Under the pieces are notes generated by a model. The model was not told where the DNA came from, did no database searches, and saw nothing but the letters and a program-made list of their open reading frames with translations. The translations under genes and the position numbers were made by a program. 41,747 nt of DNA. Origin: a virus. Location of the stretch: IMG/VR virus record IMGVR_UViG_3300022696_000071, positions 1 through 41,747 of that record. One strand, written 5' to 3'. Shown piece after piece: positions 14,714-38,840 of the stretch; positions within the stretch are counted from its first letter, which is position 1, and each line of letters begins with the position of its first letter.

Positions 14714-14721
14714 ACTTATTT

Positions 14722-18679: not shown

Positions 18680-18770
18680 ACGTATTAATCCCCTTTTTAA
18701 TAATATGTAATAATAAATAAAATAAAATCATATAAGATTTAATAAAAGAATGAAATCTTTTAATCATAAA

Positions 18771-18802: not shown

Positions 18803-19968
18803 TTAAAAAATTTAATAAATTATTAAACTTTTTAGATTTTATTTCTAAACCAGTTAACATGTTTAAATTTTGTCCTCCTCCAACCCATAAACAATACATA
18901 GGTCATTATGACTACCGTTTGTCCACATAGCAGCAGCTATTCCAATTTTCAAAATATCTTCTTAAAAGTACCGACTTGACCCAAAAATTGCTCGGACATA
19001 TTCTTAGAATATGATTATGTCACATGTACAATCTACTAATTCCATGTTAACAACATATACAGTTCATTATTAATCTACTTAGATTATAGAATGAATCTAT
19101 ATAGATTAATTTAAAACATTTTAGAATCTTTCATATTAGATTTTAAAAATCTAATATTAATTCTTTCTTAGATACTAAGAAAAAAGAATCTATATTTATC
19201 TAATTAGATTCTTTTAAGATTCAAATGGAAAAACTATTTGAGGTCAAATATTATTACTCGTTTCATGAAGCCCAGGCGTAATGAAACGGACATATATTGA
19301 TATATTCATGAATTATATATGAATGATTCAAAATTCCAAAAAATAATTGATAAATGAAAAATAAATAAAGATAAAGAAATCTAAATTAATTAATTTATAT
19401 CTTATTAATAAAAGAAATTTAAATGATTAATAAAATATGAATAATTAAATTTAAAGTTGAATAAATGATTTATCAATAGATATATATTAAATTTATATAT
19501 TTGATATATTAAACATTTGAATTGATAAATAAATTAGTCAAATTAGGGTAAGTAGAGGTTAACTGCAAAGTTAAAAACCTACCAAAAAACAGAAATAATG
19601 AATCATTGTGTTTCGGATTTTTATAAATAGAGAAGTGGTAGGGAGAAATGATTAGAATCTTAAAGAACTATAAAATTTGTTATTTAACCTTATTTAAGAG
19701 ATAAATTGATCTTAATAGAAAGTTATTAAGAAATTAAGAGTTGGATGTAGATGTTGTATCAATTCACTATCAATATGAATCAACTTGATTTTATTTTAAT
19801 AATTAATCTAATAAGTTAATGTTGCATCAATGTGTATCAATTTAGATAATCATAAATAAATAATCACCAGTTTTAATCATTCATGGCTCAATTTATAGAA
19901 CATATAATCTTCTTAGATCAATTTGATTATTGATGACTCCCTATCGGTCGAGAACCGGCCCTCGAACG

Positions 19969-20006
19969 GTTTTAGAAACTGCAAAACAGACCGCAGTTTC
20001 TAAAAC
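19969..20006. other. Perfect 14-bp stem / 10-nt loop hairpin (GTTTTAGAAACTGC-AAAACAGACC-GCAGTTTCTAAAAC), no flanking U-tract
   Basis: Exact inverted repeat read directly from the sequence. Confidence 0.6.
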
Positions 20007-20146
20007 GCTTCAAGACCTATTATATGTTATAATAATTATATAGAATATACTTCGTATATTAATATGTAAAATAATAACTTAACATATGGAATCAGTACCG
20101 GTCGTGTGAATCTTCTACGGCTTAATCAAGAATCTTTTTATATAGT

Positions 20147-20194
20147 GTTTACTAAGTGATCTTAGTCCGTTCCGTCCTTGATCACTTAGTAAAC
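20147..20194. other. Perfect 15-bp stem / 18-nt loop hairpin (GTTTACTAAGTGATC...GATCACTTAGTAAAC), no U-tract on either strand
   Basis: Exact inverted repeat read directly from the sequence. It lies ~140 nt past the stop of the kinase gene on the minus strand. Confidence 0.6.
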
Positions 20195-20333
20195 AAATCC
20201 GCTCTCTCCATATATTCATAATTTTTTCTTATTAGAATCTTCTGTTAAGCGGAATAGCCCCGACGATTAAGATTCTGATGTGATTCTATTTAGATATGAT
20301 CGCTAGTGGCTAGATTAAAAGTAGATAATCTAT

Positions 20334-21251
20334 TTAGATGAAATGGTCGTGTGCGCGAGTGAAAACATCGCGTGAAACTGATGATGTTTTTGGTTGTTTG
20401 ACGACATATTGTGCACATTCATTTGCTATTCTACATGATTTTTTTATATCTATATCTTGGGATAAACATATTGCCATAACTGATATAACAGTATCCCCTG
20501 CTCCACATACATTATAAACTGGAACTTTTTCTGATGGAATTTTATCTAAAACAAATTCCCTACTATCTAATAACTCCATGCCTTTATCACCTTTTGTATT
20601 GAGAATATACTTCACTTTTGGTGTACCATGTATTGTTCTAAATTCATGAAGTTCTGCATCATTTGGGGTAATTAGAAAAACACCATTATACATATGGGAA
20701 TGAATTGGTTTTGGATCTACTAATATTTTTATATTCTTTTTTATACCTTTAATTGATTTTAATTTAATAAGATCCATTAGTGGTTTACTTATAAGCCCTT
20801 TATTATAATCACTAACAATTATGATATCATATCTATTAAAATCTAATTTTTCTATTATTGAATATTTAGTTTCATCTACTTCATCTATTATAACTTCATT
20901 GTCTACTCGCAAAAGTTGAATAAAATTATCTGAAACAAATCTTTGCTTAGTAGTAGTGATATAATTATCATATTTTAATACAATAGATTCAACATATAAG
21001 TTATTAAGTAAAGTTTTAACAACTTCACCATTATCATCTTCACCAATAGCAGTTATACATTCTACATTTGCTCCAATTTCACATAAGTTTCTTATAACAT
21101 TTCCACATCCTCCAAGAAACAATTCTTCAGATTTAGTGTTTAAAATTGGAATCGGTGCTTCTGGAGATATTCTGTCGACACTACCAATGATATAATGATC
21201 TAACATTATATCGCCAACTACCAATATATTTAAATCACTTATTTTTTTCAT
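20334..21251 (-). CDS. PfkB-family sugar kinase, HldE/RfaE domain-I type (D-glycero-beta-D-manno-heptose 7-phosphate kinase-like)
   Basis: ILVVGDIMLDHYIIGSVDRISPEAPIPI matches E. coli HldE [35 protein letters not shown] ~ GGAANVA. C-terminal VYNVCGAGDTVISVMA ~ VYDVTGAGDTVIGVLA. Confidence 0.8.
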   Translation of the reverse strand: MKKISDLNILVVGDIMLDHYIIGSVDRISPEAPIPILNTKSEELFLGGCGNVIRNLCEIGANVECITAIGEDDNGEVVKTLLNNLYVESIVLKYDNYITTTKQRFVSDNFIQLLRVDNEVIIDEVDETKYSIIEKLDFNRYDIIIVSDYNKGLISKPLMDLIKLKSIKGIKKNIKILVDPKPIHSHMYNGVFLITPNDAELHEFRTIHGTPKVKYILNTKGDKGMELLDSREFVLDKIPSEKVPVYNVCGAGDTVISVMAICLSQDIDIKKSCRIANECAQYVVKQPKTSSVSRDVFTRAHDHFI

Positions 21252-21265
21252 ATTAATATGTCTTT

Positions 21266-21586
21266 CTATCTCGGAATAATATTATAAATTTTTTGTGGAG
21301 TTTCTAAATATTCAACTCGTGTAAATGGAATACTTCTCCAATCTTGTTTATCTAAATCATAAACTCTAAGTAAACCATATTTCTTTATATCACTTAGAAT
21401 TCTTGGAACATTAACATTTTTTGGTCGTTTATCTCTTGGTATTATCTCAAAATCAAGAGTACAATTCATAATTCTCATAGTATTATCTTTTTTAACAAAT
21501 TTAACTGTAACTTTATTAGATGAATTTATTTTGTTAAAAAAATCTAATGCATCTGTTATAGTTGCTCTTTCTTCATTATCTGGCAT
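21266..21586 (-). CDS. Hypothetical protein (106 aa)
   Basis: Listed ORF with GAAGGAG SD upstream. Confidence 0.45.
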   Translation of the reverse strand: MPDNEERATITDALDFFNKINSSNKVTVKFVKKDNTMRIMNCTLDFEIIPRDKRPKNVNVPRILSDIKKYGLLRVYDLDKQDWRSIPFTRVEYLETPQKIYNIIPR

Positions 21587-21590
21587 TGTA

Positions 21591-22268
21591 TTAAATCTCC
21601 TTCTTAAACATCATGATTGAATGGGGTTCTTTAGAAGAATTAAGTCCAGATTTAGCTACCAAGCTAAATTTTACATCTGATGAATTTACAAAAAGGTCTT
21701 CGTATTGCTGTTCTGAGCGAAATGTGATATATTTTGTTGGTTTATGTTCAAGAGTATTTTCTGTAATTAATACATATCCATCATCTTTTAACTCTTCATA
21801 AAATCTGTTAATATAATATTTTAATAAATCTTCATCCATTATGTGTTGAAGAGATACGCATGTCCAAACCAAATCAAATTTATACTCTGAATCTTGTAAT
21901 TCAAAAGTTCCATCATCATTTATTTGTGTAAAAAATACATCATTATACCACGGGAGATTTGTCATGATACGATCATTATTTGGCATAATATCTACACCAT
22001 GATAATCATCAAAATAATCTGAAAGAAATGGTGCCCATCTTCCTATACCACATCCAAAATCTAAAACTTTTTTCTTCTGACGTGGTTTATCTGGTTTGAG
22101 TTGTTTAAGTTTATTAAATCGTTTTTCTAATACTTTACGAATTATATTTCCCCATCTTGTAGTTTCTCGCTTATATCTTTTTTCATCCCAATCGTATCTA
22201 CCAACTACATTTATTTCTTCCATTTCAGCATATCGTTTTTCCCAATATTCTTTATTTGTCTTAAACAT
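21591..22268 (-). CDS. Class I SAM-dependent methyltransferase
   Basis: Motif I VLDFGCGIGRW, acidic motif II (YHGVDIMP) and post-II DLVWTCVSLQHI. Confidence 0.6.
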   Translation of the reverse strand: MFKTNKEYWEKRYAEMEEINVVGRYDWDEKRYKRETTRWGNIIRKVLEKRFNKLKQLKPDKPRQKKKVLDFGCGIGRWAPFLSDYFDDYHGVDIMPNNDRIMTNLPWYNDVFFTQINDDGTFELQDSEYKFDLVWTCVSLQHIMDEDLLKYYINRFYEELKDDGYVLITENTLEHKPTKYITFRSEQQYEDLFVNSSDVKFSLVAKSGLNSSKEPHSIMMFKKEI

Positions 22269-22294
22269 AATACTCTCCTTTTATATATTTTTAT

Positions 22295-23356
22295 TTAGTT
22301 TTTTAATTCTTCTCCAAATACATAATTATGTTTACCAATTGAATTATTATCATATAATATACATTCGCCATTATCATTACATATTATATCTAATAATTCA
22401 TTAGCAACATGATGCCATGTTCTATTATTTTTTACAAACTCTCTACCCTTTTCTCCTATCGCTAATCGCTCAACATAATTATCATCATTTAAATATTTTA
22501 TTAATTTCTGTTTTAAATCAAATAATGATTCAAATACTATAAGTTGTTCTTCGTTTTCTATTCCAAGTCTTGCAGTCATATTTGGTATTGTTTTAGTAAA
22601 TACCATAGATCCACATGCCAATATATTCCATAATCTCAACGATGAATATCCCTCATAGCATCCTCTACTTAAATTTAGAACAGCTTTACTTTTTGAACAT
22701 ATTTCCCTGAATTTATCTGGATATATAAATTGAGTATAACCTGGACCAAAAAATTTAACTTTGAATCCTTCATCTTTCAAATATTTATAAATTACATCAC
22801 GCTCATTATCTCTGCCACCTATAAATGATACATCATATTCTTTTTCCATATCAACTGGTTTATAAGTGTTAATATCACTTCCATCAATTACATGATACAC
22901 ATTTAATTTTATTCTTTTTGCCCATCTTAATGCATTCCCATAACCAGTAGCTGTTCTATAATGAAAATATTTACTGAATTCAAACATACGATTACGTTTG
23001 AGTTGAGGATACCAATCAGGGAACCAATGAAGTGTTCTACAATTTCTTGATGCAAGTTGGATAGTTTGAAGTGGTATATTATTTCCTTTTTGTATAATTA
23101 ATAAATCACATATATTTGATAATCTTATAATTTTACTAACAATAGTATTATAATTTTCAGCCATTTCTTTTCGATAATCGAATTTGATAACTTCTTCAAC
23201 TATTTCATTATCTCTAAAACCTCTCTCAAAATAAATTGAACTAGAAGCTATACTATTAAATACTCCAACTATAGCAACTTTTATTTTCTTTTTACTAAGT
23301 GGTAAACTTTTTCTTGATTTGATCATATGTACATCTGGATTTATTTTTGAATACAT
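22295..23356 (-). CDS. Putative glycosyltransferase (GT-B / CgeB-like C-terminal domain)
   Basis: The C-terminal half resembles CgeB/GT1-type domains (EGYSSLRLWNILACGSMVF...). Weak, by eye only. Confidence 0.4.
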   Translation of the reverse strand: MYSKINPDVHMIKSRKSLPLSKKKIKVAIVGVFNSIASSSIYFERGFRDNEIVEEVIKFDYRKEMAENYNTIVSKIIRLSNICDLLIIQKGNNIPLQTIQLASRNCRTLHWFPDWYPQLKRNRMFEFSKYFHYRTATGYGNALRWAKRIKLNVYHVIDGSDINTYKPVDMEKEYDVSFIGGRDNERDVIYKYLKDEGFKVKFFGPGYTQFIYPDKFREICSKSKAVLNLSRGCYEGYSSLRLWNILACGSMVFTKTIPNMTARLGIENEEQLIVFESLFDLKQKLIKYLNDDNYVERLAIGEKGREFVKNNRTWHHVANELLDIICNDNGECILYDNNSIGKHNYVFGEELKN

Positions 23357-23358
23357 AA

Positions 23359-24162
23359 CTATGATGCCTTTTCCATTATTATTGGATTATAATTCATAAA
23401 TTCATATCTATAAATCGCTGGCGAATGTTTGAAACTTTGATCTATACTTGATAAATATGAAATAACTTCTTCTGTTTTTCTTACAGTAATTCCATATATT
23501 TTTTGATTATTTTTTCTATATTTTGCTTTACTCCAATCACCTTTCATATCATTATGCCTATGAAACTGATGAATTAATTTCCAGTTAAATGGTTTACTTT
23601 TTGTAAAATATTCTGCTTGACGTATTAAACAATTATCTATACCACCAAGCTCTTGTAAAAATTCATTACATCCACCAATTTTCCAATAATAATCTTTATC
23701 AAAATATACAAGTCCACCTTCACACATTCCCCTTCTTGGTGTATCTTCTCTAACAACTCTACCAAATACATCATAATACGTTATACGATCCCAACAATGA
23801 CACCATTTTAAATTATTATTCTTTATATAATTATACAATGGTTTAAAATATCTTAATGGTCTATATGGAATACAATCAGATTCACCTAATATAATATCAT
23901 TGGATTCAGAAGCTTTAACTCCAATATTGTAACACCATGATTTATTAAAAATTGGATAATTTATCTGTATAAATTTCACATTATGATCTACATTTCCTAT
24001 AGTATCTTTATAAGTTGGAAATTTATCATTAACAATTTGTTCTACTATGATTATTTTTAAAAGATCGTTTTTATACGGAGATAGTTGATTATGTATATTA
24101 TCAACTCTATCTTCAAAATCTGGTCCATTTATATTACATACAGGAATAATCAAAGTGAACAT
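23359..24162 (-). CDS. Putative GT-A fold glycosyltransferase
   Basis: N-terminal FTLIIPVCN, followed by IIVEQ and a DxD-like ESDCIPY, is typical of GT2/GT7-like enzymes. Weak. Confidence 0.4.
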   Translation of the reverse strand: MFTLIIPVCNINGPDFEDRVDNIHNQLSPYKNDLLKIIIVEQIVNDKFPTYKDTIGNVDHNVKFIQINYPIFNKSWCYNIGVKASESNDIILGESDCIPYRPLRYFKPLYNYIKNNNLKWCHCWDRITYYDVFGRVVREDTPRRGMCEGGLVYFDKDYYWKIGGCNEFLQELGGIDNCLIRQAEYFTKSKPFNWKLIHQFHRHNDMKGDWSKAKYRKNNQKIYGITVRKTEEVISYLSSIDQSFKHSPAIYRYEFMNYNPIIMEKAS

Positions 24163-24166
24163 ATTA

Positions 24167-24439
24167 TTATCTCTCCTTTACATATTTCCTTCTAAGTTCA
24201 TGAAATTTTCTAAGTGCTGCAACCATTATTTTATTATAGCACCCAATACATAAATCTTTTGATTCTTCCCTTTCAGATATTCGATGTGTATTTCCATCAC
24301 TATCGCCTTGTATATGTACTCCAATATTATCATCAAAATATGAATCAATATGACATAGATAATTGAATTTATTACTATATCTTTCATTTGTAATTTCTTT
24401 ATTACAACAATCACATTTAACAATTTTAATAATAGCCAC
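24167..24439 (-). CDS. Small Cys-rich zinc-ribbon protein (90 aa)
   Basis: CDCC...C (N-terminal) and CIGC (C-terminal) pairs. Confidence 0.4.
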   Translation of the reverse strand: MAIIKIVKCDCCNKEITNERYSNKFNYLCHIDSYFDDNIGVHIQGDSDGNTHRISEREESKDLCIGCYNKIMVAALRKFHELRRKYVKER

Positions 24440-24441
24440 GA

Positions 24442-25428
24442 TTAATTCTCCATATTCTTAAAATTAAATATTACTGATTTTTTCTTTTCTGGTTTACTTT
24501 TTGTTAATGCTAAAATCTTGTTAAATATTACCCGATAATCTGTTTTATATGACAATGTTTTTTCTTCATAAAAATCACATTGTGTTTTAAATGGATTTTC
24601 TAAAACTAAATGTCTATGTTTTTCATGACCCCACATTAATGTTGGTATTTTTAAATAATTTGATAATATTGGAATAGCTGATTGCTGGCCTATCGTTAAT
24701 TTTGAAGCTTTTATTGCTTCTATGGTAAGACCAATTAAACTAGTTTCATGTTGTGGAAATAAATAATCTTCTAATATTATAAATGATTCAAGTGATTCAT
24801 CTGGCTTTAATATTGATCCAGATAAACCAGGAATAAAACATATAAACTTTTCAGATTTCTCTATTAATTCAAACAAATCATTCCAATAATCTTCTCTCCA
24901 GTTTCTTTCTTTCCCTTTTTCTAAATCTATTCTATGTCTTGGAGATATTACAATTGGTATTTTATTTATATATTTTTTCTTATTTAATATATTATATATT
25001 ATTCCTTTATTATTTGCTCTTGGTTTAAAATTAAAATCCATTTTATCAAAATCAAATATATTTCTATTTGGAGTATTAATAGTTTTAATTATATGTATAT
25101 CATTATCAATTACATCAGTTATAATCTTAAATAAGTTTTTAAAATCAGAAGGAGAAAAATAATCCAATCTATACATATTTGGTCTATATTTATGATAATC
25201 TCCATCTATATCAAATGGTATTATATCATCTACATTATTAGAATAAAGATCTATTCTTTCAGATCTTGTAATTGCATATATTTTTTTATCATAATATGTA
25301 TTTTTTACCCACCGTACAAAACCACACCATCTATATAGTTCCCAACCAAGTTCTCCTATAAATGGTCCAAATGCTATTTTATCATTCTCAGATATTTCTT
25401 TAATAAAATTTTCTTGTATACTATTCAT
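24442..25428 (-). CDS. Hypothetical protein (328 aa), possibly glycan-processing
   Basis: Listed ORF in the glycosylation gene block. No firm motif. Confidence 0.45.
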   Translation of the reverse strand: MNSIQENFIKEISENDKIAFGPFIGELGWELYRWCGFVRWVKNTYYDKKIYAITRSERIDLYSNNVDDIIPFDIDGDYHKYRPNMYRLDYFSPSDFKNLFKIITDVIDNDIHIIKTINTPNRNIFDFDKMDFNFKPRANNKGIIYNILNKKKYINKIPIVISPRHRIDLEKGKERNWREDYWNDLFELIEKSEKFICFIPGLSGSILKPDESLESFIILEDYLFPQHETSLIGLTIEAIKASKLTIGQQSAIPILSNYLKIPTLMWGHEKHRHLVLENPFKTQCDFYEEKTLSYKTDYRVIFNKILALTKSKPEKKKSVIFNFKNMEN

Positions 25429-25439
25429 ACTTAAATCCT

Positions 25440-27266
25440 TTATATTAATTTTCCAACTATCATCTCTATATCTTCATAATCATTCAATTTAGAAAAATCT
25501 AACATTTTTATCCAGTTACTATTTGGTAAATCTTTATTATAATCAGAATGAGTATAAACTAATGAATTTTTCTTCGTTAAGTATGACAAATACATCATAT
25601 TTGACATATTTGTCGTTATAGATAAATCACTGATACATATATATCCAGCTAATTTAATAAAATCTATATTATTTATAAATCTAACGTTTCTTTTTTGTGA
25701 TATATGGGGAGGAAAATTTATTTTTTGTTCATCGATTAACGATATGATTAAAAAATTATAGAATTGATCATTTGATAATTTAGATATTGCGCCTATATAA
25801 TTCTTTAAATATAAAGCATTAGTACCTTTTATATGAGATCCAGATAAAACTATCATATTTTTAAATACAGAAGATTTTGGAATAGTATATTTACAATATG
25901 GATTTGGAACAGATTCATCTATATCATATTTTGCTATCATACTATGATTTTGTTTAACAGGATGATTATTTGAATTGCCACTTGGATAGAAACAATTATA
26001 ATCTCCAATATTTAAATTACAATTTAATGTTCTGAATATATTATCATAGCTGTTCAAATTTATTAGATTAGATTTTATATCTTTAACATCATATATATTT
26101 CTTATTCTACTATCATTTATAATATATAAACTTGGTCGCAATTTATCATCTGTTAATATATCAATTTTACCAATAGATAATCTATTTAAATCTTTTATAA
26201 ATGGTACAGTATACGCAATATCTCTTAAATTAGAATTTACTAATATTAATGAATGTTTATCTGGATTAAATTTAGTTGAAGTTACTTTTATTGGGGTTAC
26301 ATTCTTTTGAACTCTTGGTTCGTTAAATGTATCTATTAACCCTTTCTGTTTATTATATCTATCTGATAAAATTTTATTTTGATATTCACTATTTGTATAC
26401 CATGTTGGTATATTATCTGGAGTAACAATCATCTTAGATATTCTATGTGTATCTCCAAATTCATTATTAAGATTATTTGGTATAAATACGACATTCCTAT
26501 CTTTTGTTTGTATTTTATTATATAGTATTAAATCTCTTCTTTGAATATCATTTAATATTAATTGATTATCATATCTAAAGCATAAGCTTGGTGTCTGCCT
26601 TGATGATTTTTCTTTAAGTCCAAATTTTTTAAGTTGATGAATTAAATGAATTCTTGACATCTCAGTGAACATTTCTTCTTCAAGACCATTAATCATATGC
26701 ACAAGATATTTTAATTTGCATATGATTATAGGGACAAATTCTCCACTATCTTTAATTTTTTTAATAGCTCTTGCTCTTTCAATGATAGCTCTTCCTAAAT
26801 TTTCATCTACTTCATCAATATCTCTATATCTATCAAAAGAAAATCTTTTATCATCATCTTGATAATCATAATATGTTCTTATAGTGGAAAAATGAGTATT
26901 AAAATTTGTCTCATGTTGCCCTTTTCCTTTCTTATGCTCATAATACAAAGCAGCAACGTTAACAGAACAATATCCATCAATTAATACCATAAATCTATCA
27001 AATAATTTATCATTATTAAGATTAGCCAAAACTATATTGATAGCAAGTGGATAATTAAATCCAACTGAATTGGTAATATAAGAAGATGTAAATAAAGGAA
27101 TTACATCTTTTAATTCATTATTACTTAATTCTTTGGCATTTTTTCCCATAAGAGACAAATGAATATTTGTACGAGAATTAAATTTATGAATACTCTTTAA
27201 CCAATCTATATTACAATTTTCAGAATCAGCACCAATTATTATATCTGTTTCTTGCTCTTTTATCAT
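25440..27266 (-). CDS. Hypothetical large protein (608 aa). The C-terminal region is possibly GT9-like
   Basis: C-terminal MIVLSGSHIKGTNALYLKNYIGAI resembles the acceptor-side region of heptosyltransferases. Speculative. Confidence 0.4.
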   Translation of the reverse strand: MIKEQETDIIIGADSENCNIDWLKSIHKFNSRTNIHLSLMGKNAKELSNNELKDVIPLFTSSYITNSVGFNYPLAINIVLANLNNDKLFDRFMVLIDGYCSVNVAALYYEHKKGKGQHETNFNTHFSTIRTYYDYQDDDKRFSFDRYRDIDEVDENLGRAIIERARAIKKIKDSGEFVPIIICKLKYLVHMINGLEEEMFTEMSRIHLIHQLKKFGLKEKSSRQTPSLCFRYDNQLILNDIQRRDLILYNKIQTKDRNVVFIPNNLNNEFGDTHRISKMIVTPDNIPTWYTNSEYQNKILSDRYNKQKGLIDTFNEPRVQKNVTPIKVTSTKFNPDKHSLILVNSNLRDIAYTVPFIKDLNRLSIGKIDILTDDKLRPSLYIINDSRIRNIYDVKDIKSNLINLNSYDNIFRTLNCNLNIGDYNCFYPSGNSNNHPVKQNHSMIAKYDIDESVPNPYCKYTIPKSSVFKNMIVLSGSHIKGTNALYLKNYIGAISKLSNDQFYNFLIISLIDEQKINFPPHISQKRNVRFINNIDFIKLAGYICISDLSITTNMSNMMYLSYLTKKNSLVYTHSDYNKDLPNSNWIKMLDFSKLNDYEDIEMIVGKLI

Positions 27267-27281
27267 TTTATATAATATCTC

Positions 27282-28208
27282 CTACCATTCAGTTACAGCT
27301 TTAGAATTTTTAAATCTATTAAATATTTCTTTATGATTCATATCTTTTAATTCTTTTTCATAAGTATATAAACTATCACGATTTGATTCATAATAATTTT
27401 CTCCAAATTTTGGATTCATTAAAGTATTACATATTGATCCTATTCCTTTTAATCCACCAAGATGCATTACTAATGGATTATCTTCTTTATTTTTTGGCAA
27501 AACAGCCATCATATAATTATTTGGTCCAATAGTTTTTCTTATAAAACTCCATGTAGAAGTATCATGTCGTTTTCTAACATTATATGCATTATATATTATA
27601 TCTTTATTTATGGTCCAAACTTTATATATATTTTCCATTTGATGTTGACCCATAAACCAAAAACCAGATCCACCACCACCATCTGCATATATAACATCTA
27701 TAGATCCAGATTTTTTAATATGTGTCGCTGATCTTAATCTAAATGGTATACCTCCTGGATACTTAATGCAGAAATGTATGGTATTTTTTGGATTAAATGT
27801 ATTTAAATTATCTACAGCTTCTACAAACTGAGAATCCCAATCTTCTCCAACTAACATATCATTATCTATAAGAAGATAATAATTTGATACACCAACTGGT
27901 TTAATCATTTTTTTATTCAGATCATTCATTTGATTCATCATAATCAGCCATCGATAAAATACTATTGATTTACCAAAGCAATTATGTAATGATTCATTTG
28001 TATCATATGAATAATAGTGAATTTTTTTATCTCTTAATAATTTATAAAATAAATCCAACCTACTTTTATTTAATTCTGATAAATTATCAAATACATATAT
28101 GTATATATTATCAAATTTCGTAGAATTATCTAATATAGAACATATTGTATGAGTTGTTAATAAAGTTCTATCCCTTGTTGGGATCATCACGTATAAATTT
28201 CTTTTCAT
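27282..28208 (-). CDS. Putative GT2-family glycosyltransferase
   Basis: YVMIPTRDR (cf. the GT2 IPTYNR motif) and LIDNDM (DxD). Confidence 0.45.
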   Translation of the reverse strand: MKRNLYVMIPTRDRTLLTTHTICSILDNSTKFDNIYIYVFDNLSELNKSRLDLFYKLLRDKKIHYYSYDTNESLHNCFGKSIVFYRWLIMMNQMNDLNKKMIKPVGVSNYYLLIDNDMLVGEDWDSQFVEAVDNLNTFNPKNTIHFCIKYPGGIPFRLRSATHIKKSGSIDVIYADGGGGSGFWFMGQHQMENIYKVWTINKDIIYNAYNVRKRHDTSTWSFIRKTIGPNNYMMAVLPKNKEDNPLVMHLGGLKGIGSICNTLMNPKFGENYYESNRDSLYTYEKELKDMNHKEIFNRFKNSKAVTEW

Positions 28209-28241
28209 ATATTTCCCCTCTATAAATTTCTCATTTTAGTA

Positions 28242-28287
28242 TTTGTCCTTTTCAGAGTGTGGATTAATTTTACAAATAGCGGACAAA
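28242..28287. promoter_or_regulatory. Divergent promoter/operator candidate: GGACAAA box (reverse, 28242-28248), AGTGTGG (28256-28262), TAGCGGACAAA box (28277-28287)
   Basis: The exact 11-mer TAGCGGACAAA recurs at 14691-14701 (minus), 18771-18781 (minus) and 28277-28287 (plus). AGTGTGG lies 14-18 nt upstream of the box here and at 18796-18802 (reverse complement CCACACT) and 34611-34617. Confidence 0.4.
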
Positions 28288-28338
28288 CATTAAACTATTC
28301 TATTTTAATTTACATATACTAATAGAAAGGGGCAATTT

Positions 28339-29568
28339 ATGAACAAGGGTGCAATGCGTAGATTGGGTATAAGTGTAAGAGAAAATGGTCATGTCGATAC
28401 TCTGAAAGAAGTATTGGATGAACCACCGTTTATGGTATTAGCTAAAGTATTACATAATGGATATTTTAATATCCAAGATAAATCAATACAGATTAAAAAG
28501 GGATCTGTATTAGCTATGCCATTAAATTTTTATAATAATTGTCATAGAGCAAGAGAATCTGGAAGAAGAAAACTTCTTAAACCAAACAGAAGACCATTTA
28601 ATTATTATTTTAAAAGATACAGGGGAGAAGATTTAACAAATAAAAAGTTACTAATATGGCGAACTGGTGGAATAGGAGACTTACTTTTCATACAACCCAT
28701 AGTAAAATATATTAAACGAACATATGAAAATGTTCACATAACGATTGCGTCATCTCCAAGATTTACTGATATTTTAGAATGTTGGCCTGATGGATTAGTA
28801 GATGATATAAAATCTATACCATTTAGTTATAAGTTATTAATGAATCATAATTATCATATTACATTTGAAGGGGTTATTGAAAGATGTAAAGAAGCTCAAG
28901 TTAAAAATTGTTATGATCTATTTTCTGAAACTGCTGGATTAGATCTCGATCATACTTCCGATGATAATAAAATAGAACTTGTTTCAGATGATTCATTAAT
29001 ACATAATAATATATTACCAGAAAGTGACTATGTTGTTGCTCAAATGAGAGCAAGTAATCCATGTAGAATAATGTCAACAAGAAAATGGTCACAATTAATA
29101 AATGGTATAACTAATTATGGATTGAAAGTTGTAATAATCGATTCTCCAAAATTTCAACAATTTTATGATGACTTGTTTAAAAATTATACTATAAATAAAG
29201 ATGATGTATTTAATCTATCAGAACATTCTAAATCAATAAAACATGCTGTATCCGTTATAAATAGAGCAAAAGGAGTTATTGGAATAGATTCTTCATTTAT
29301 ACATATTGGAGAAGCACTAAATAAACCAGTGTATGGTTTATATGGTCCATTCACTGCTGATGTAAGAATGAGATATTATAGAAATTATGATTTCAGTGAA
29401 CCAGAAAAAGTAGTATGCAAGTATCAACCATGTTTTTTTCATCAGAATGAAACTAAAAAATGTCCATTTATAGCACAAAGAAAAAATCCTGGCTGTCTTG
29501 AAGAAATAGATATAGAAGTATCAGTAAAGAAATTTATGAATCTTCTTGGAATTACCGATGGAGAATAA
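28339..29568 (+). CDS. GT9-family glycosyltransferase (ADP-heptose heptosyltransferase-like) with an extra ~100-aa N-terminal extension
   Basis: LLIWRTGGIGDLLFIQPIVKYIKRTYENVHITIASSP matches the WaaC/WaaF N-terminal signature (R/K-x-x-x-x-GD-x-L-x-x-x-P...I-x-x-L). The C-terminal Rossmann region has G-rich IGIDSSFIHIGEALNKPV. Confidence 0.62.
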   Translation: MNKGAMRRLGISVRENGHVDTLKEVLDEPPFMVLAKVLHNGYFNIQDKSIQIKKGSVLAMPLNFYNNCHRARESGRRKLLKPNRRPFNYYFKRYRGEDLTNKKLLIWRTGGIGDLLFIQPIVKYIKRTYENVHITIASSPRFTDILECWPDGLVDDIKSIPFSYKLLMNHNYHITFEGVIERCKEAQVKNCYDLFSETAGLDLDHTSDDNKIELVSDDSLIHNNILPESDYVVAQMRASNPCRIMSTRKWSQLINGITNYGLKVVIIDSPKFQQFYDDLFKNYTINKDDVFNLSEHSKSIKHAVSVINRAKGVIGIDSSFIHIGEALNKPVYGLYGPFTADVRMRYYRNYDFSEPEKVVCKYQPCFFHQNETKKCPFIAQRKNPGCLEEIDIEVSVKKFMNLLGITDGE

Positions 29569-29570
29569 AA

Positions 29571-29815
29571 TGGAAGAAAAAGAAAGAACATATAATGAAC
29601 TGCTTGAAGATATAAAAATAGAAGCCGGTTCATTTTTTAGATTGGCTGAAGCAGGAAAAGTAACGCGATCCACTGCATTAAAAGCAAGAAAACAATCAAT
29701 TGTGTTAAGAGATATGCTAAAATTATTCAGAAAAAAATCATTAGAAAATGATAAACGAATTAAATCTATAATGGCTGAAGCAAAGCAAAAAGTGTTAGAA
29801 GAAACAATGGAGTAA
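29571..29815 (+). CDS. Small basic/coiled protein (81 aa)
   Basis: ATG at 29571 preceded by GGAGA. The listed ORF at 29546 starts inside the upstream gene, so the downstream ATG is preferred. Confidence 0.4.
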
Positions 29816-29818
29816 AAA

Positions 29819-30595
29819 ATGGAAAAAGAAACAGTTATTCAGTTATTTACTCCGGGATTAGATAGTTATCTTGGTTATCACTATTTATCAAAAAAATACA
29901 ATGTTAAAAGAATATATTTTAAATTGAAATCAAGATATACTGATAATGAGATAAAAATACTCAATAATTTTTATAATGATATTTATATATATGAAAATTT
30001 AAATTTATCTGATATAGAACATGACGATGCATATATACCAAATAGAAATTTATTAATGGCAACATTAGCATCATCATTGTATCCAAATATATCTAAAATA
30101 TTTATAAATGGTATGAAAGATGATAGAGTTAATGATAATAGAGAAGATGTATTTAATAGATTATCTATAGTAGTATCTATGAGTATGGATAAACCGATAA
30201 TGATAACTAGTGAATTCTGGAATAAAGAAAAATCTGAAATGGTATCAACATTTGTAATAAAAAATGAGCCAATAATAGAACATTTAGCAACCAGAACATA
30301 TAGTTGTTTTAGTAAGTTTTTTATATACAATAAAACAAGAATATATAATGGTAATCCAATAGATGGTAAATTTAATAAAAATGGAAGATTAAAAATTTAT
30401 GGATGTTGTTCATGTCCAGCTTGTTTTCGTAGATTTGCGGCATTATCGAATGCAAATATATTTATACCATTTAGAAATGATAATATAGTAGATGGTTATA
30501 GAGGAGATGCTATAAATAAAAATATTCATCCATTCAGATATTTTTCAACACTTGAATATATTAGATTTTTAGATTTTATGAAAGGAGTGAGATAA
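29819..30595 (+). CDS. queC: QueC-like 7-cyano-7-deazaguanine synthase homologue (PP-loop ATPase fold with a degenerate PP-loop)
   Basis: IPNRNLLMATLAS ~ QueC VPGRNLLFMSIAA. C-terminal zinc motif CCSCPACFRR ~ CGECPACQLR. The N-terminal TPGLDS replaces the canonical SGGxDS. Confidence 0.65.
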   Translation: MEKETVIQLFTPGLDSYLGYHYLSKKYNVKRIYFKLKSRYTDNEIKILNNFYNDIYIYENLNLSDIEHDDAYIPNRNLLMATLASSLYPNISKIFINGMKDDRVNDNREDVFNRLSIVVSMSMDKPIMITSEFWNKEKSEMVSTFVIKNEPIIEHLATRTYSCFSKFFIYNKTRIYNGNPIDGKFNKNGRLKIYGCCSCPACFRRFAALSNANIFIPFRNDNIVDGYRGDAINKNIHPFRYFSTLEYIRFLDFMKGVR

Positions 30596-31198
30596 ATGGA
30601 TGGAATATACTTTCCGGAATTTCCAACTAAAACAAAAAAGAAAAAAACAAAAATAAAAACAAAATCGCCTTATATGGAATTTAAAGAATGGTTATTTAAT
30701 CCATATCCAAATGCTAAATTACCAGATCATGTTTTAAAAATTGTAAACGCAAGAACTGTATTGTGTATGTTTGGTAATCTTGGAAAACTGACAATCTTTC
30801 TCAATAAATACTTTAATAAGTTTAATATAACGTATTTAAATAAAGAAGAATTCTTTATATATATTAAATATATAATACAGAAGTTTCGTATCGATAAACG
30901 TCAATTCAGTTTTTATAAAAGTGAACAACGTGATACTTCGTATGTTGATATTCATTCTAAATTTTTTCCACATTTGAAAAAATATGAGTTAAATTTACTT
31001 ATGGAACTTATAAAAACTGATGATGATTATGATAGAATTATGGAATCATTTGGATTAACTAAATATAAAGTTACAAAAAATAAATCTAAAAAATCCAAAA
31101 CTAAAAAAGAATCAAAAAATGATGATAATAATACCATAAATAATAATAACGAAGTAACAACGTTTGAAGAACTAAAATCTTTATTTTTAGTTAACTGA
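30596..31198 (+). CDS. Hypothetical Lys-rich protein (200 aa)
   Basis: Listed ORF with AAGGAG SD. Basic N- and C-termini. Confidence 0.5.
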   Translation: MDGIYFPEFPTKTKKKKTKIKTKSPYMEFKEWLFNPYPNAKLPDHVLKIVNARTVLCMFGNLGKLTIFLNKYFNKFNITYLNKEEFFIYIKYIIQKFRIDKRQFSFYKSEQRDTSYVDIHSKFFPHLKKYELNLLMELIKTDDDYDRIMESFGLTKYKVTKNKSKKSKTKKESKNDDNNTINNNNEVTTFEELKSLFLVN

Positions 31199-34547: not shown

Positions 34548-34561
34548 CCAATTTCAATGAA

Positions 34562-34601
34562 AAATGGGAAACTGGACTCTATTCCAATTTCCCATTTTTT
34601 G
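34562..34601 (+). terminator. Rho-independent terminator (AAATGGGAAA...TTTCCCATTT stem followed by TTTT)
   Basis: 10-bp perfect stem with an internally paired 16-nt loop, then TTTTTTGTTG. Confidence 0.55.
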
Positions 34602-34643
34602 TTGTCAGAGAGTGTGGTCTTTTTTTCTTATTCACCGGACATA
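34601..34643 (+). promoter_or_regulatory. TTGTCAGAGAGTGTGG...CGGACATA composite upstream of the polymerase-thumb gene
   Basis: Shares the CAGAG(A)GTGTGG and (C/G)GGACA(A/T)A elements with the 28250 region. Confidence 0.3.
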
Positions 34644-34668
34644 CTAAAAATCTTATAAAAACAGTATA

Positions 34669-35496
34669 TTGGAGGTATTAGTGGATAAAAATAAGAAAGA
34701 AGTCATCATAAAAAAGATATTGGAACATTGTTCTATATTGGAAGAAGTATTAAATAACGAATTATTAATTGAATTTGGTAAATTAAGAAATATAAAAACA
34801 AAATATAATAGATTTAGTGCAAAACAAGAAGTTATAGCACAGAGAGGATTCTTTTTAGATGTAAAAAAGAAATATGCATTATGGATTATAAATAATGAAG
34901 GAGTGGATACGGAAGAGTTTGATATAAAAGGGCTAATAACAAAAAGATCTGACTATCCAACATTAACTAAAGAAAAAATAATGGATATCATAAGTTTTCT
35001 TGTAAAAGATGATGTAGTATCTTTTAAGAAAATAAAAAAACATATAGATGAACAAGATAATAATATACGATCATTATGTATAAAAGGTGATAAATCTATA
35101 GCAAGACCTGTATCATTCTCTAAACCACTCAAAGAATATAAAAGAGTACCATCTCATGTGGAGGGTATGTTACTGTGGAATAAATTAGAATATGATTATT
35201 TTGTTCCAGGTACAAAGGGATATCAATTTAAGATAATTGGAATAGATCCAGTAATATCTACTGGAAGAGTACAATCATCATTACCATATATAAATTTTAA
35301 AAAGAATAATAATGTGGTTTTACCATACGAAGCAGATCGTCTTCCTAAATATTATAATATCGATGTTGAATCAATGATTCAATTTGCATGGGTTAATAGA
35401 TATAAAGAATTATTACATCCAATATGGGATAGATTACAATCATCTGGAAAAAACAAAAGTGGTAGATCTATGGCACAATTTGCATTTCAATTTTAA
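34669..35496 (+). CDS. Family-B DNA polymerase C-terminal fragment (thumb domain with KKRY motif and C-terminal clamp-binding tail), encoded as a separate gene
   Basis: GFFLDVKKKYALWIINNEG ~ T4/RB69 gp43 GGFWTGKKRYALNVWDMEG. The terminal ...MAQFAFQF ~ RB69 ...SLFDMFDF clamp-interaction motif. The likely true start is GTG at 34681 after GGAGG; the listed TTG is at 34669. Confidence 0.68.
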   Translation: MEVLVDKNKKEVIIKKILEHCSILEEVLNNELLIEFGKLRNIKTKYNRFSAKQEVIAQRGFFLDVKKKYALWIINNEGVDTEEFDIKGLITKRSDYPTLTKEKIMDIISFLVKDDVVSFKKIKKHIDEQDNNIRSLCIKGDKSIARPVSFSKPLKEYKRVPSHVEGMLLWNKLEYDYFVPGTKGYQFKIIGIDPVISTGRVQSSLPYINFKKNNNVVLPYEADRLPKYYNIDVESMIQFAWVNRYKELLHPIWDRLQSSGKNKSGRSMAQFAFQF

Positions 35497-36173
35497 ATCT
35501 TTCTTGCTAATTTTTTCATATCATCTGATGTTAATAAGTTATCTTTTTTATATTCATATTTTGAAATCGCTTCTGAAATGTTTGATTTACATTTATCAGG
35601 ATTACTTGTTTTATCACATAATTCTTTTTGTTTCTCCAATTGAGTAATAGTATCGTGCATTACTTTTATTTTACATGTTGTTAATCTATCACCTCTTAAT
35701 TGCCAGCATTCGCCATGTAGTCGCTTTCTATAATAAGTTACAATCATTGAACCGATTGCTAAACCAAGAGCAATGCTTGCCAAAACAGATAATATTCGAG
35801 TAGCTTTCATTGATTTATTTGCATTTTTTGAAGCTTTTTCTGCCATATCTGCAACATCATTCAATCTTTTTTTAGTATCTTTATAATCTCTTTTTAATTT
35901 TCCAATTATACTTCTTGGTCTTCTTTCTGTTGATGAGCTACTACGTTCACTTCTATTTGACGAAGATCTAGAAGAAAAAGATGCTATATAACTTTTTAGT
36001 TTACTCAAACCAGACGATTCAGACGATTCAGATAATTCAATCATATTATCTATATTATTTATCATTTCTTGTCTAATATTATTATTTATATCCAAATCTT
36101 CAATAGCTAATATCATTGATTCAATGCAATTAAAACTTAATTCCTCACCAATATATTTTTCAGATATATACAT
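35493..36173 (-). CDS. Membrane protein (226 aa): N-terminal coiled/Ser-rich region, one TM helix, Cys-containing C-terminal domain
   Basis: Hydrophobic segment ILSVLASIALGLAIGSMIVTYY. AAGAGG SD. TATAAATA lies 16 nt upstream of the ATG on the minus strand. Confidence 0.55.
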   Translation of the reverse strand: MYISEKYIGEELSFNCIESMILAIEDLDINNNIRQEMINNIDNMIELSESSESSGLSKLKSYIASFSSRSSSNRSERSSSSTERRPRSIIGKLKRDYKDTKKRLNDVADMAEKASKNANKSMKATRILSVLASIALGLAIGSMIVTYYRKRLHGECWQLRGDRLTTCKIKVMHDTITQLEKQKELCDKTSNPDKCKSNISEAISKYEYKKDNLLTSDDMKKLARKI

Positions 36174-36196: not shown

Positions 36197-36254
36197 CAAT
36201 TAAACATTTAGAATTTGTCCTTCTATTACATTAAAAAAAGGAGAAAGTTTATTT

Positions 36255-38840
36255 ATGAATAAGAAATTAAAAACTAAATTTGGAGATTGTCTCAAATGTG
36301 ATTTAAACACAAAAGATAATAAGACAATGACAAAACTGGTATTTGGTGAGACAAATTGTCAAAACGACTTAGATTCTATTAAATTGTTAATATTAGGAGA
36401 AGCACCAGCTTATCAAGAAACTCTTGATAATAGACCATTCGTTGGAAAAGCAGGAAGAGTATTTAGAGCAGAATTTGCAAATTCTGGACTTATTAATATT
36501 CCACATTATATAACGAATATAGTAATGTGTTCAAATCTAAGTTATAATCCTATAACAAAAAATATAAAAACAAATAATCCGTCGCAACTTGCTATAGATT
36601 GTTGTAGTAGAAATTGGAAAGAATTAATAAATATATTATGTCCAGAATATATTCTTGCACTCGGATCATCTGTTCAAAAAGCACTTGATATAAAAGGAAG
36701 TGCAAGTCAATGTAGGGGAAAATTCTATTATTATGATGATCCAACATTTACTGGCTTTGTTCCACCACAAATATTTGCAACATATCATCCATCATATATT
36801 GCACGGGGAACAACACCAAAACATGTACGTAAACAATTTATATCTGATTTTTCAACTTTAAATAAAGAAATAACTAAAGAACCAAGTTTTATGACAGGAG
36901 AAATAGAAGAAGAGAAAAAGAATGATAAAGTTCAAAAATTTGATTTAAAGCTTAATAGTCCATATTCATTTGATATTCCAGATAAATTTAAAACTCAAAA
37001 TATTGTATTAATAGATATTCAAAAAGACAATTTCAATTCACAAATAATATATGTTTTTAGAGATGCAAATAGAAATAAATTTTATCATTATGCATCTGCA
37101 AGAGATAATTATTATTATGAATCAACTAAACTTAGTGATAATTGTGATATTCTTGAAAATGTAGAAAACGTGCATATTAAATTCGGACATCCCCCGAGGT
37201 ATGGATCACGTAGGGGATTATATGAAAGTGATTTATCAATAGAATACAAACACTCTATTGATTATTATCTACATAGAAAAAAAGATGAACTTCATTATGA
37301 TTTACAAATATTCTATTATGATATCGAAGTATATAATTATGGATCAAGAGAATTTCCAGATCCAAAAATTGCAGCAAGTCCGATAAATGCTATATCATTT
37401 AAAAATCATAATGATGAAATAAATTGTTATGTAGTCAATCCAAAATTTTTCAATTTAAATACTAATATAGATATCAATATAGAAAGTAAATCAAAATTTG
37501 ATTTTAAGCTCACTATATTTGAGAGTGAAAAAGAATTATTAGAAACTTTTATGAAAAAATTAAGAGAAGACAGTCCAGATATAATGATAGGATGGGCTAA
37601 TCATAATTTTGATATAATATATATATTTAACAGAATAAGAAAAAATAATTTAAAAGCAAGTGATTTATCTCCGATAGGAAGATGTAATATAAATCCAAAA
37701 AAATACGGAGATATATTTATAGGCGGCATATCATCTGTAGATATGCTTGAATTATATAAGAAATTTACATTTTCAGTAGAAGAATCTTATAAACTCGAAG
37801 CAGTTGCTCAAAAACAACTTGGTGAAGGAAAAATTAATTATTCTGGACCACTCGATGAAGTATACCAAAATGATTTTATAACTTTTGTTAATTATAGTGT
37901 TCAAGATTCAAGATTATTATATGAATTAAATGATAAACTTGGACATATAAAACTTGCTAATGAACTACGCAAGATTTGTAGTAGTACATGGAAAGGAGTA
38001 GAATCTACAATTGGCCTTATAGATCCATTATGTATATCATACGCAAAAAAGATGAATATTGTATGTAAAGATTCAGATATGGGTATAAATGAAAAATTTA
38101 AAGGAGCATATGTAAGAGATCCAGTACCAGGTCTTCATAGTTGGGTAGTTGATATGGATTTTGCATCAATGTATCCAAATATAATTATATCATGCAATAT
38201 TGGTCCAGACACATACATTGCAAAAATAGATGAGCAAATTGCTTATGATTATGTCTATAAAAAAGATAATGTTCCAAAATCATTTACAATAACATATAAC
38301 CCAATAACTAATTTCGACTCTACAACAATATCTTTAAATGATTTTGATAAATTTATGAGTAAAAATGAAGCGATTATTACAAGTGCTGGAACTATATTTA
38401 TTGGTCATGATAAAAAGCTATCATTTTTCAATAAGTTACTTACAATGCTTCTTGATTCACGAGTTAATTATAAAAACTTAATGAAAGATGCTAAACGAGA
38501 AGATAGAGAAGAAGACAGAGCAAGATTCTTTAATATTCAGATGGCGTATAAAATTCTTGCTAATTCAATTTATGGCGCTCTTGGCGCGTCTGTATTTAGA
38601 TTATATCGATTAGATCTTGCTAAATCGGTAACTTTAACGGGAAGAGAACTTACTCAATTTGCTGGTTATCATATGTCAAAATTTATGACTACTGATAATA
38701 AAGAAATAGATCCAGATTTTAAAGTTAAATCAAAAGAACATCAAAAGTATTGGATATATGCTGATACAGATAGCATATTTTTAGAAATTGGAGATTATAT
38801 GATAGATAAAGGTATTGCTGTAAGAGAGGAATTATCATGA
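36255..38840 (+). CDS. Family-B DNA polymerase N-terminal fragment: family-4 UDG-like domain + 3'-5' exonuclease + palm (motifs A, B, C), ending 25 aa after motif C. The thumb is absent
   Basis: UDG4-like GEAPAYQETLDNRPFVGKAGRVF and HPSYIARG, with CxxC (FGDCLKCD). Exo I YYDIEVY, Exo II WANHNFDIIYIFNR, Exo III YSVQDSRLLYEL. Pol motif A DMDFASMYPNII, motif B KILANSIYGALG, motif C YADTDSIF. The stop overlaps the queE start (ATGA). Confidence 0.85.
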   Translation: MNKKLKTKFGDCLKCDLNTKDNKTMTKLVFGETNCQNDLDSIKLLILGEAPAYQETLDNRPFVGKAGRVFRAEFANSGLINIPHYITNIVMCSNLSYNPITKNIKTNNPSQLAIDCCSRNWKELINILCPEYILALGSSVQKALDIKGSASQCRGKFYYYDDPTFTGFVPPQIFATYHPSYIARGTTPKHVRKQFISDFSTLNKEITKEPSFMTGEIEEEKKNDKVQKFDLKLNSPYSFDIPDKFKTQNIVLIDIQKDNFNSQIIYVFRDANRNKFYHYASARDNYYYESTKLSDNCDILENVENVHIKFGHPPRYGSRRGLYESDLSIEYKHSIDYYLHRKKDELHYDLQIFYYDIEVYNYGSREFPDPKIAASPINAISFKNHNDEINCYVVNPKFFNLNTNIDINIESKSKFDFKLTIFESEKELLETFMKKLREDSPDIMIGWANHNFDIIYIFNRIRKNNLKASDLSPIGRCNINPKKYGDIFIGGISSVDMLELYKKFTFSVEESYKLEAVAQKQLGEGKINYSGPLDEVYQNDFITFVNYSVQDSRLLYELNDKLGHIKLANELRKICSSTWKGVESTIGLIDPLCISYAKKMNIVCKDSDMGINEKFKGAYVRDPVPGLHSWVVDMDFASMYPNIIISCNIGPDTYIAKIDEQIAYDYVYKKDNVPKSFTITYNPITNFDSTTISLNDFDKFMSKNEAIITSAGTIFIGHDKKLSFFNKLLTMLLDSRVNYKNLMKDAKREDREEDRARFFNIQMAYKILANSIYGALGASVFRLYRLDLAKSVTLTGRELTQFAGYHMSKFMTTDNKEIDPDFKVKSKEHQKYWIYADTDSIFLEIGDYMIDKGIAVREELS

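Follow-up and report, generated by a model that had tools for sequence, protein, structure and literature searches.

T4-like phages as a group use the host polymerase. In T4 middle promoters, a MotA box, (a/t)(a/t)(a/t)TGCTTtA, is located at -30 together with a sigma-70 -10 element, in what is known as MotA/AsiA appropriation. The sigma promoters of the Bacillus phage SPO1 have AGGAGA at -35 and TTTNTTT at -10 for gp28, and CGTTAGA and GATATT for gp33-34, while the promoters of single-subunit phage RNA polymerases are contiguous blocks of about 17-23 bp ending at +1. For uncultivated phages, promoters are to our knowledge almost never known. T4 late promoters have no -35 element but carry TATAAATA at -10; gp55 recognizes them together with gp33 and the gp45 clamp (PMC2988020). 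Here we describe a recurrent sequence with a GGACAAA core (the box) in 41,747 nucleotides of viral DNA (positions 1 to 41,747 of IMG/VR record IMGVR_UViG_3300022696_000071; the window). The box is probably the core promoter element of its phage lineage, and would be read by a phage-specified specificity factor on RNA polymerase.

The box occurs non-randomly in the window. The first-pass annotation had reported the 11-mer TAGCGGACAAA three times, intergenic and upstream of genes, and exactly three copies are present compared with 0.01 expected, at 14693-14703(-), 18771-18781(-) and 28277-28287(+); the latter two positions agree with that annotation, and the first is shifted by 2 nt from the 14691-14701 it had given. 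Between box end and start codon there are 28, 91 and 51 nt, respectively, close to the 30-90 nt claimed. Four further GGACA(A/T)A boxes from the same annotation are also present, three exactly as described (8565-8571, 28242-28248 and 36214-36220) and one at 34637-34643 instead of beginning at 34638, and two more intergenic boxes are located at 18869 and 18918. The bare number of GGACAWA copies is not significant (16 vs 10 expected). By location, GGACAAA is the most noncoding-enriched 7-mer of the window, with 8 of its 10 copies in noncoding DNA. The extended form GGACAAANNNTAAA has five copies compared with 0.06 expected, every one of them intergenic. The extended consensus can be written as (A/C)GGACAAA-N3-TAAA over ~15 bp, and the conserved contiguous block measures ~15-17 bp; a TAGC extension of the box is particular to this genome, where relatives show (t)a(t)C. 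When the window was scored with a position weight matrix (PWM) built from 50 sites, all in relatives and none from the window, the top nine hits were all intergenic (8565, 28281, 14693, 18869, 28242, 34637, 18771, 36214 and 18918). The window boxes face gene starts 18-90 nt downstream on the same strand, with the 18869 and 18918 copies sitting at the edge of or in a region free of open reading frames (ORFs).

The 41.7-kb window is AT-rich (22-35% GC) and densely coding, with a noncoding share of ~6% and two gene blocks that diverge from 28209-28338. It encodes a gp44-type clamp loader, a primase-like protein, an intein-containing thymidylate-synthase-family protein, QueC-like and QueE-like enzymes, dCTP deaminase, several glycosyltransferases and a family-B DNA polymerase fused to uracil-DNA glycosylase (UDG). 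The window has no DNA-level match to deposited GenBank phages, and its polymerase shares only ~29% identity with the gp43 of T4-like cyanophages. A polymerase of identical sequence (P0001) has been recorded from a 201-kb JGI contig, and the next relatives are at most 47% identical. Relatives fetched around the polymerase gene (loci with L numbers below) are syntenic and carry T4-type portal, prohead protease and DnaB genes, with T4-type baseplate proteins encoded elsewhere in the relatives' genome. This makes the source an uncultivated jumbo phage distantly related to T4, and its strong Shine-Dalgarno (SD) sequences suggest a bacterial, non-Bacteroidota host. Scans of the window for tRNAs and Rfam families returned no match.

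An exact 40-mer had no match in IMG/VR, and genome-wide use of the box was therefore judged from these relatives; the window is ~20% of a roughly 200-kb genome. Seven loci of the clade add up to 178.7 kb, of which the database gene calls leave 4.9% noncoding; of their 66 GGACAAA copies, 40 are intergenic (p ~2e-35). GGACAAA is again the top noncoding-enriched 7-mer when only relatives are considered (32 of 56 copies), and this is the case in phages with DNA polymerases only 44-47% identical. Orientation follows the downstream gene: across 21 clade loci, 68 of 130 copies are followed on the same strand, within 75 nt, by an SD, a start codon and an ORF of at least 50 amino acids, compared with 12 of 130 in the reversed reading and 8.5% for composition-matched permuted 7-mers (p ~6e-38). 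Conservation and orientation thus both speak for the original suggestion of a recurrent, gene-oriented phage transcription signal. The divergent region of the window indeed holds two inverted boxes around one AGTGTGG, as first noticed, and the same region, between a 300-codon gene and a GT9-like gene, was found in eight relatives (L007, L009, L011, L013, L014, L015, L017 and L095). Outward boxes toward both genes are kept in every one of them while the surrounding sequence has diverged; orthologues of the rightward 28277 box are present in L007, L009, L011, L013, L014, L015 and L095, and the two boxes form a back-to-back pair, TTTGTCC-N12-GGACAAA, in L009, L011, L013, L015 and L017. The convergent junctions in L014 have no box. 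Further syntenic box positions lie before the C-terminal polymerase piece (orthologues of the 34637 box in L007, L009, L011, L013 and L095), after dnaB and after the portal gene, where the box reads GGACAAACT(T/A)TAAA(T/C)C in five genomes (L007, L009, L011, L013 and L095). In all of IMG/VR, the 17-mer AGGACAAACTATAAACA has 26 hit stretches, five of them in the 223-kb relative IMGVR_UViG_3300033141_006329. In pieces of that genome located 70-90 kb from the polymerase, copies of the 17-mer or close variants precede T4-type baseplate genes (gp25-like and T4_baseplate), an array of small ORFs, and other genes, and replication genes of this relative have the box as well; the box is therefore not restricted to one functional class. 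The degenerate pattern GGACAAAYTAAAAACA gave mostly chance matches among the IMG/VR matches listed.

The signal is also clade-specific. Relatives at 33-40% polymerase identity or 33-37% GT9 identity show no GGACAAA enrichment. In 16 long loci of the GT9 sister group, an unbiased test of upstream k-mers returned GAACAAA as the top word (31 of 132, p 3e-10), with a matching layout, GAACAAA-N3-(T/A)AAA, 25-50 nt before ATG. The signal thus appears to be a family trait whose second position, G or A, switches with phage lineage, and a reader encoded by the phage would account for such a switch more readily than a host factor. No relevant literature on GGACAAA or GAACAAA as a phage promoter was found in our searches. 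The sister lineages (L020-L094) also have a very uniform motif resembling a ribosome-binding site (RBS), (T/C)GAAAGGA(A/G), which precedes the ATG of the GT9-like gene, among others, by 8-12 nt.

Where the box lies relative to translation signals places it close to the transcription start. At many sites the SD begins 9-14 nt past the box and the start codon is 18-34 nt past it, 18 nt being the shortest distance to an ATG in the clade loci. Tight examples include 14693 in the window (GGACAAAttcaaaattctatAGGAGAGaaattataATG), L277 1816 (GGACAAActataaacAGAGGAGaatATG) and L244 12574 (GGACAAActataaacaGAGGAattatatATG), and the shortest box-bearing intergenic regions, at 34-37 nt, contain little beyond box and SD (L009 20947-20981, L013 21234-21267). 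If the SD is within the mRNA, the start site should fall within ~8-13 nt of the box; a start ~30 nt downstream would leave the RBS untranscribed, which excludes a -35 or -30 role. Downstream of the box, most A-type sites have a degenerate T(A/C/T)TAAA, and sequence conservation stops at TAAA. The full element, (A/C)GGACAAA-N3-TAAA, would accordingly be read as a signal of the -10 or start-site-proximal region. In the likely geometry, GGACAA would be the -10 equivalent with GGACAAA at roughly -16 to -6 and initiation in TAAA, and transcription would probably start ~5-15 nt past the 3' end of GGACAAA, at or just beyond TAAA.

AGTGTGG, described in the first-pass annotation as an upstream partner, is a real element that occurs at a subset of boxes only. 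Its count is not significant (three window copies vs 1.5 expected). All three copies end 18-19 nt upstream of a same-orientation GGACAWA core (TGTGG-N17-19-GGACAWA, 3 vs 0.03 expected): at 28256-28262, 18 nt upstream of the rightward box; at 18796-18802(-), 18 nt upstream of the 18771 box; and at 34611-34617(+), 19 nt upstream of the 34637 box. Counted to the TAGC extension, the distance is 14 nt at the two TAGC sites; the spacing given originally was 14-18 nt. Including relatives, TGTGG(A/T) is found 17-19 nt upstream of window boxes 28281, 18771 and 34637, of the GT9-proximal boxes of L009, L011, L013 and L015, where the spacer has diverged and TGTGGA is unchanged, and of L009 17289. With a TGTGG background of 4.6e-4 per strand position, ~0.08 such cases would be expected over 55 sites. 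Counted as hexamers, TGTGGA-17 bp-GGACAA has the classic spacing of the sigma-70 family. A second arrangement is inverted, (T/C)CCACAC, with its TCC exactly 12 nt upstream and the CCACAC form 8-9 nt upstream of the box; it is found at window box 14693 (GTCCACA, 14709-14715(-)), at L095 2209 and 12549, and at L277 3132. The 28256 element reads TCCACAC on its other strand, where TCC is exactly 12 nt upstream of the leftward box 28242(-), and back-to-back boxes have the N12 spacing as well. Boxes with a partner are mostly before replication or DNA-modification operons, while boxes of structural genes usually have none and show the clearest TAAA. Given two arrangements and absence from most boxes, the partner is not a fixed half of a bipartite site, as had been proposed. 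It could be an auxiliary upstream element, either a -35-like contact or an accessory-factor site.

Compared with known systems, the box shares with T4 late promoters what appears to be a compact -10-region element with no obligatory upstream partner, used on both strands in a T4-related phage (by its portal, prohead protease, baseplate and clamp-loader homologues), and the second half of the motif (cTaTAAAc, TTTAAAT, CTCTAAAC) resembles TATAAATA. Unlike T4 late promoters, it adds an invariant G/C-containing GGACAAA block, and exact TATAAATA, which in T4 occupies -13 to -6, is not enriched (27 vs 20 expected), being mostly coding with only three noncoding copies. Nor is the box limited to late genes, as it also precedes the clamp loader, the polymerase piece, the GT9/QueC operon and small-ORF arrays; furthermore, no gp55 homologue was found in the available sequence and the T4 start geometry would clip the tightest SDs. 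With T4 middle promoters it has in common a phage-specific element upstream of replication genes and a second element at a subset of sites, but its sequence is unrelated, it is too near the SD and ATG for -30, no sigma-70 -10 element accompanies it, and MotA and AsiA were not detected in the window. The SPO1 sigma promoters are similar in their noncanonical hexamers, the TGTGGA-17 bp-GGACAA subset having two-hexamer spacing; they differ in that most boxes have no -35-like partner, the partner is also found inverted 8-9 nt upstream, and no sigma gene was identified in the available sequence of this phage. As in the promoters of T7-like or jumbo-phage non-virion RNA polymerases, there is one ~15-bp block with an upstream specificity part and an A/T-rich part near the start, reused across many gene classes genome-wide, yet neither ~42 kb of this genome nor ~65 kb of a relative yielded a gene for a phage RNA polymerase.

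Our searches for the factor covered ~20-30% of these genomes, including those ~42 kb (the window) and ~65 kb of the 223-kb relative. Pfam and PHROGs comparisons of ~50 window and relative proteins revealed no sigma factor, MotA, AsiA, gp55, gp33 or RNA polymerase. Phmmer searches with T4 gp55, gp45, gp62 and RpbA had no match in family sequence, and an eight-sequence gp55 profile together with T4 gp55 matched nothing in the family sequence examined except one canonical T4-like locus. With hhalign, 22 window protein profiles aligned to the gp55 profile at probabilities of 1.2% or less in every case. At this coverage, failure to find a factor does not mean that the phage has none. Since T4-related phages have gp55 and gp33 among their core genes (PMC2988020) and the second motif half resembles TATAAATA, we favor a divergent gp55-like or other sigma-like factor. 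Such a protein, whether or not of gp55 type, would act on the host core enzyme, a phage-encoded polymerase being less likely, and the invariant GGACAAA would be an added upstream specificity block before the TATAAATA-like second half (cTaTAAAc). The box would mark the start of essentially every transcription unit seen, including replication, DNA-modification and structural units. A 328-residue protein encoded at 24442-25428(-) is conserved family-wide and contains PFDIDGDYH, the only DxDGD-type motif in the clade sequence scanned; no family match was obtained for it.

Several points weigh against reading the box as a core promoter element with a phage-specified reader. The promoter role, the start-site position and likewise the reader have been deduced from sequence, and neither a sigma factor nor a gp55/gp33 homologue nor an RNA polymerase turned up in the sequence searched. 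One and the same core stands before genes that look early, before replication genes and before late structural genes, whereas T4 has three promoter classes, and a single core does not by itself explain how the first transcripts arise. The behavior of the partner suits an accessory protein site as well as a -35 element. Lastly, a T4-late geometry, with the start 6 nt past the TATAAA-like octamer, would exclude the SD from the transcript at the shortest sites, so that either the geometry differs or the first genes are translated from read-through RNA.

The alternative that survives best, although we find it unlikely, has the box as the operator of a global phage repressor or activator, overlapping weak-consensus promoters, with GTCC...GGAC inverted pairs as dimer sites. 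The back-to-back pairs, the TCC exactly 12 nt upstream of several single boxes and the partial box-like copies (TGTGGAC) upstream of some boxes fit such a protein. Most boxes are however single, asymmetric and strictly gene-oriented; dyads exist only at paired divergent boxes or, at a few sites, through a 3-nt TCC at N12, and with N12 spacing the half-site centres are separated by 16-19 bp and face different sides of the helix. These intergenic regions, some of them only 34-37 nt long, contain no second conserved element that resembles a promoter. This makes a pure operator, and with it the repressor site suggested in the first-pass annotation, improbable. Quite improbable, too, is an RNA-level signal in the 5' untranslated region, such as an endoribonuclease processing site or a translational-regulator site in the manner of T4 RegB or RegA, which would account for an orientation that always matches the downstream gene and for a position that precedes the SD by 10-15 nt. 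Where two boxes stand back to back, the 12 nt between them leave neither room nor conserved sequence for promoters upstream of each, some boxes stand directly after terminators, and no conserved RNA structure goes with the box. The end of conservation at TAAA is also what a DNA signal ending at the start site would show.

A -35-like or -30 (MotA-box-like) element with a host sigma-70 -10 hexamer downstream is very unlikely. The sequence cGGACAaa matches TTGACA at four of six positions, and a few sites have an A/T-rich hexamer 17-18 nt downstream, but a start ~30 nt past the boxes at 8565, 14693, 28242 and 36214 would be in or beyond the SD or at the ATG, and the same clash arises at many sites in relatives, given the 18-nt minimum. 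Sigma-70 promoters have TTGACA-like and TATAAT-like hexamers 16-18 bp apart, with a start ~7 nt past the second hexamer; such pairs between 26000 and 37000 number 87 compared with 90.2 in shuffled sequence, and none is systematically tied to intergenic regions, in line with the initial impression that the box resembles a sigma-70 element without being one. The MotA/AsiA-like logic proposed at the same time is precluded by the distances to the SD and start codon, and searches of the window returned no homologue of either protein. We can practically dismiss chance, and also a short repeat or a remnant of a mobile element of which the three identical 11-mers could be dispersed copies, in view of the enrichment, PWM and orientation statistics, the syntenic conservation at 44-47% polymerase identity, and flanks that share nothing past the box and its TGTGG partner.

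Other known signals were considered and rejected. In an archaeal reading with a TFIIB recognition element (BRE) and TATA box, the start ~25 nt past TAAA would fall inside ORFs, and the bacterial-type genes (DnaB, NAD-dependent ligase, strong SD) also rule it out. A Bacteroidetes-like TAnnTTTG on the reverse strand was ruled out by spacing, orientation and strong SDs, and a sigma-H-like -35 (RnAGGAwww) or a GGAAC like that of extracytoplasmic function (ECF) sigma factors by the position of the box near the SD and ATG. An N4-like DNA hairpin formed by TCC-N12-GGA would have stems of only 3-5 bp and loops of 8-12 nt.

The individual sites of the window differ in strength and context. The highest PWM score (21.3) belongs to GGACAAActcTAAA at 8558-8571(-), located 34 nt from the ATG of gene 8177-8530; a structural-type ORF of >2720 codons comes after this gene. 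Second (21.0) is the rightward box of the divergent region, TAGCGGACAAAcatTAAA at 28277-28294(+), upstream of the GT9-like gene 28339-29568 and a GT9/QueC/nucleotide-metabolism operon. Its leftward counterpart, GGACAAAtacTAAA at 28235-28248(-), scores 17.6 and lies 33 nt before the ATG of gene 27282-28208, in front of an operon with glycosyltransferases, a methyltransferase and a PfkB kinase. The clamp-loader gene (13675-14664) is preceded by TAGCGGACAAAttcAAAA at 14686-14703(-), score 19.2, and its SD, AGGAGAG, begins 14 nt past that box. The 11-mer at 18771-18781(-), score 15.0, is upstream of the 699-codon gene 16580-18679. GGACAAAattTAAA at 18862-18875(-), score 18.1, is at the edge of the 1.65-kb ORF-free region, with an ATG 8 nt past the 7-nt core, and a weaker box, tgtGGACAAAc, is within that region at 18918-18924(-), score 12.9. 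The variant box GGACATActaAAAA at 34637-34650(+), score 15.6, is upstream of the C-terminal DNA polymerase piece, which has an SD, GGAGG, at 34671-34675 and a probable GTG start at 34681. A hairpin with a U run resembling an intrinsic terminator (34555-34604(+), -24.4 kcal/mol, z = -5.2) closes the upstream operon immediately before partner and box (34611-34650), and a terminator-then-box pair is also found at L276 2691. GGACAAAttcTAAA at 36207-36220(-), score 14.9, is 40 nt before the ATG of a 226-codon ORF, 35493-36173. A possible weak variant, TGACAAAttaTAAA at 11797-11810(-), overlies the stop codon of a 141-codon gene, ~110 nt before the intein-containing ThyA-like gene; with a score of 10.3, it is the best non-exact PWM site facing intergenic DNA.

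Additional copies were noted in the relatives. The first 9500 positions of L244 (~185-194.5 kb of IMGVR_UViG_3300033141_006329) are an unbroken one-strand array of ~25 ORFs of 95-150 codons, apparently transcribed from one box at L244 9775(-). Upstream of dnaB, every relative has GGACAAA inside a gene of 457-468 codons, ~215-230 nt before the dnaB start (L007 14615, L009 15524, L011 15854, L012 18319, L013 15787, L095 14759), and the window has GGACATA at 41432-41438; this in-gene copy may be either an internal promoter or merely a conserved G-Q codon pair. L014 contains a 1.2-kb ORF-free insert between minus- and plus-strand genes (15040-16233), to all appearance markedly GC-richer than the AT-rich phage sequence around it, which has no Rfam match at E <= 0.01.

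The genes around the boxes have some unusual features of their own. The family-B polymerase is split and permuted, its C-terminal piece (34669-35496(+), PHROG 262 positions 597-766) lying upstream of the N-terminal piece (36255-38840(+); UDG, exonuclease and palm, positions 18-589). Relatives keep this order with adjacent genes only 9-13 nt apart (L007 9202-9987/10001-12574, L009 9203-9991/10001-12532, L011, L013). The 226-codon ORF at 35493-36173(-) lies antisense between the pieces in this genome only, has no detectable homologues and, with its own GGACAAAttcTAAA box, looks like an inserted selfish gene. The 1.65-kb ORF-free region (18680-20333) is very AT-rich and contains many short TAGATTCT/AGAATCT/GATTAAT-type repeats, a perfect 16-bp hairpin (20146-20195), a 22-bp hairpin (19961-20014) and two additional boxes, with GGACATA found twice on the opposite strand. 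The region could serve as a replication origin or contain noncoding RNA genes; Rfam and tRNA scans of it found no match. The thymidylate-synthase-family gene at 8588-11692(-) encodes 1034 amino acids including an intein with a LAGLIDADG endonuclease domain. At 1-8160(-), the ORF of >2720 codons runs off the window. Its product has a Pfam match to DUF2341 and a repetitive N-terminal sequence that looks LamG-like, and is probably a giant fibre or surface protein, with the 8565 box as the putative promoter of its gene. Among the products of the two divergent operons (20334-31198) are a PfkB sugar kinase, a methyltransferase, QueC-like enzymes and glycosyltransferases of the GT1/GT2/GT9 types, with QueE-like and dCTP-deaminase genes further on. 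These enzymes suggest hypermodified DNA, with 7-deazaguanine and/or sugars, and such modification might extend to both G residues of the box.

Taken as a promoter, the box would give a new consensus for a large uncultivated branch of T4-related jumbo phages. A 15-bp signal that can be read straight from metagenomic sequence would delimit transcription units in mostly unannotated genomes of 200-300 kb, and the motif would be usable as a part in expression studies once a host is found. It would also mean that the late promoter TATAAATA, elsewhere in the T4 superfamily very conserved, is not used as such in one of its deep branches, and the G/A switch at position 2 would offer a handle on the cognate factor by co-variation. 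The box is the only G/C-rich stretch of these intergenic regions in a phage with 7-deazaguanine and sugar-modification enzymes, and promoter recognition of modified DNA is therefore a testable question. The finding would be weightier with a reader of a novel kind, or if a single promoter type really drives the whole programme. As a tentative and rather doubtful extension, essentially the entire gene programme of a broad uncultivated sediment family of T4-related jumbo phages, from small-ORF arrays to replication, DNA-modification and structural genes, may run from G(G/A)ACAAA-N3-TAAA. Its reader would be a novel phage-specified specificity factor or polymerase that co-evolves with the lineage (GGACAAA vs GAACAAA), and GTGTGG/CCACAC would be an accessory-factor site for the timing of the replication and modification operons. 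If true, transcription in this family would be organized differently from that of T4, with its early/middle/late sigma-appropriation scheme.

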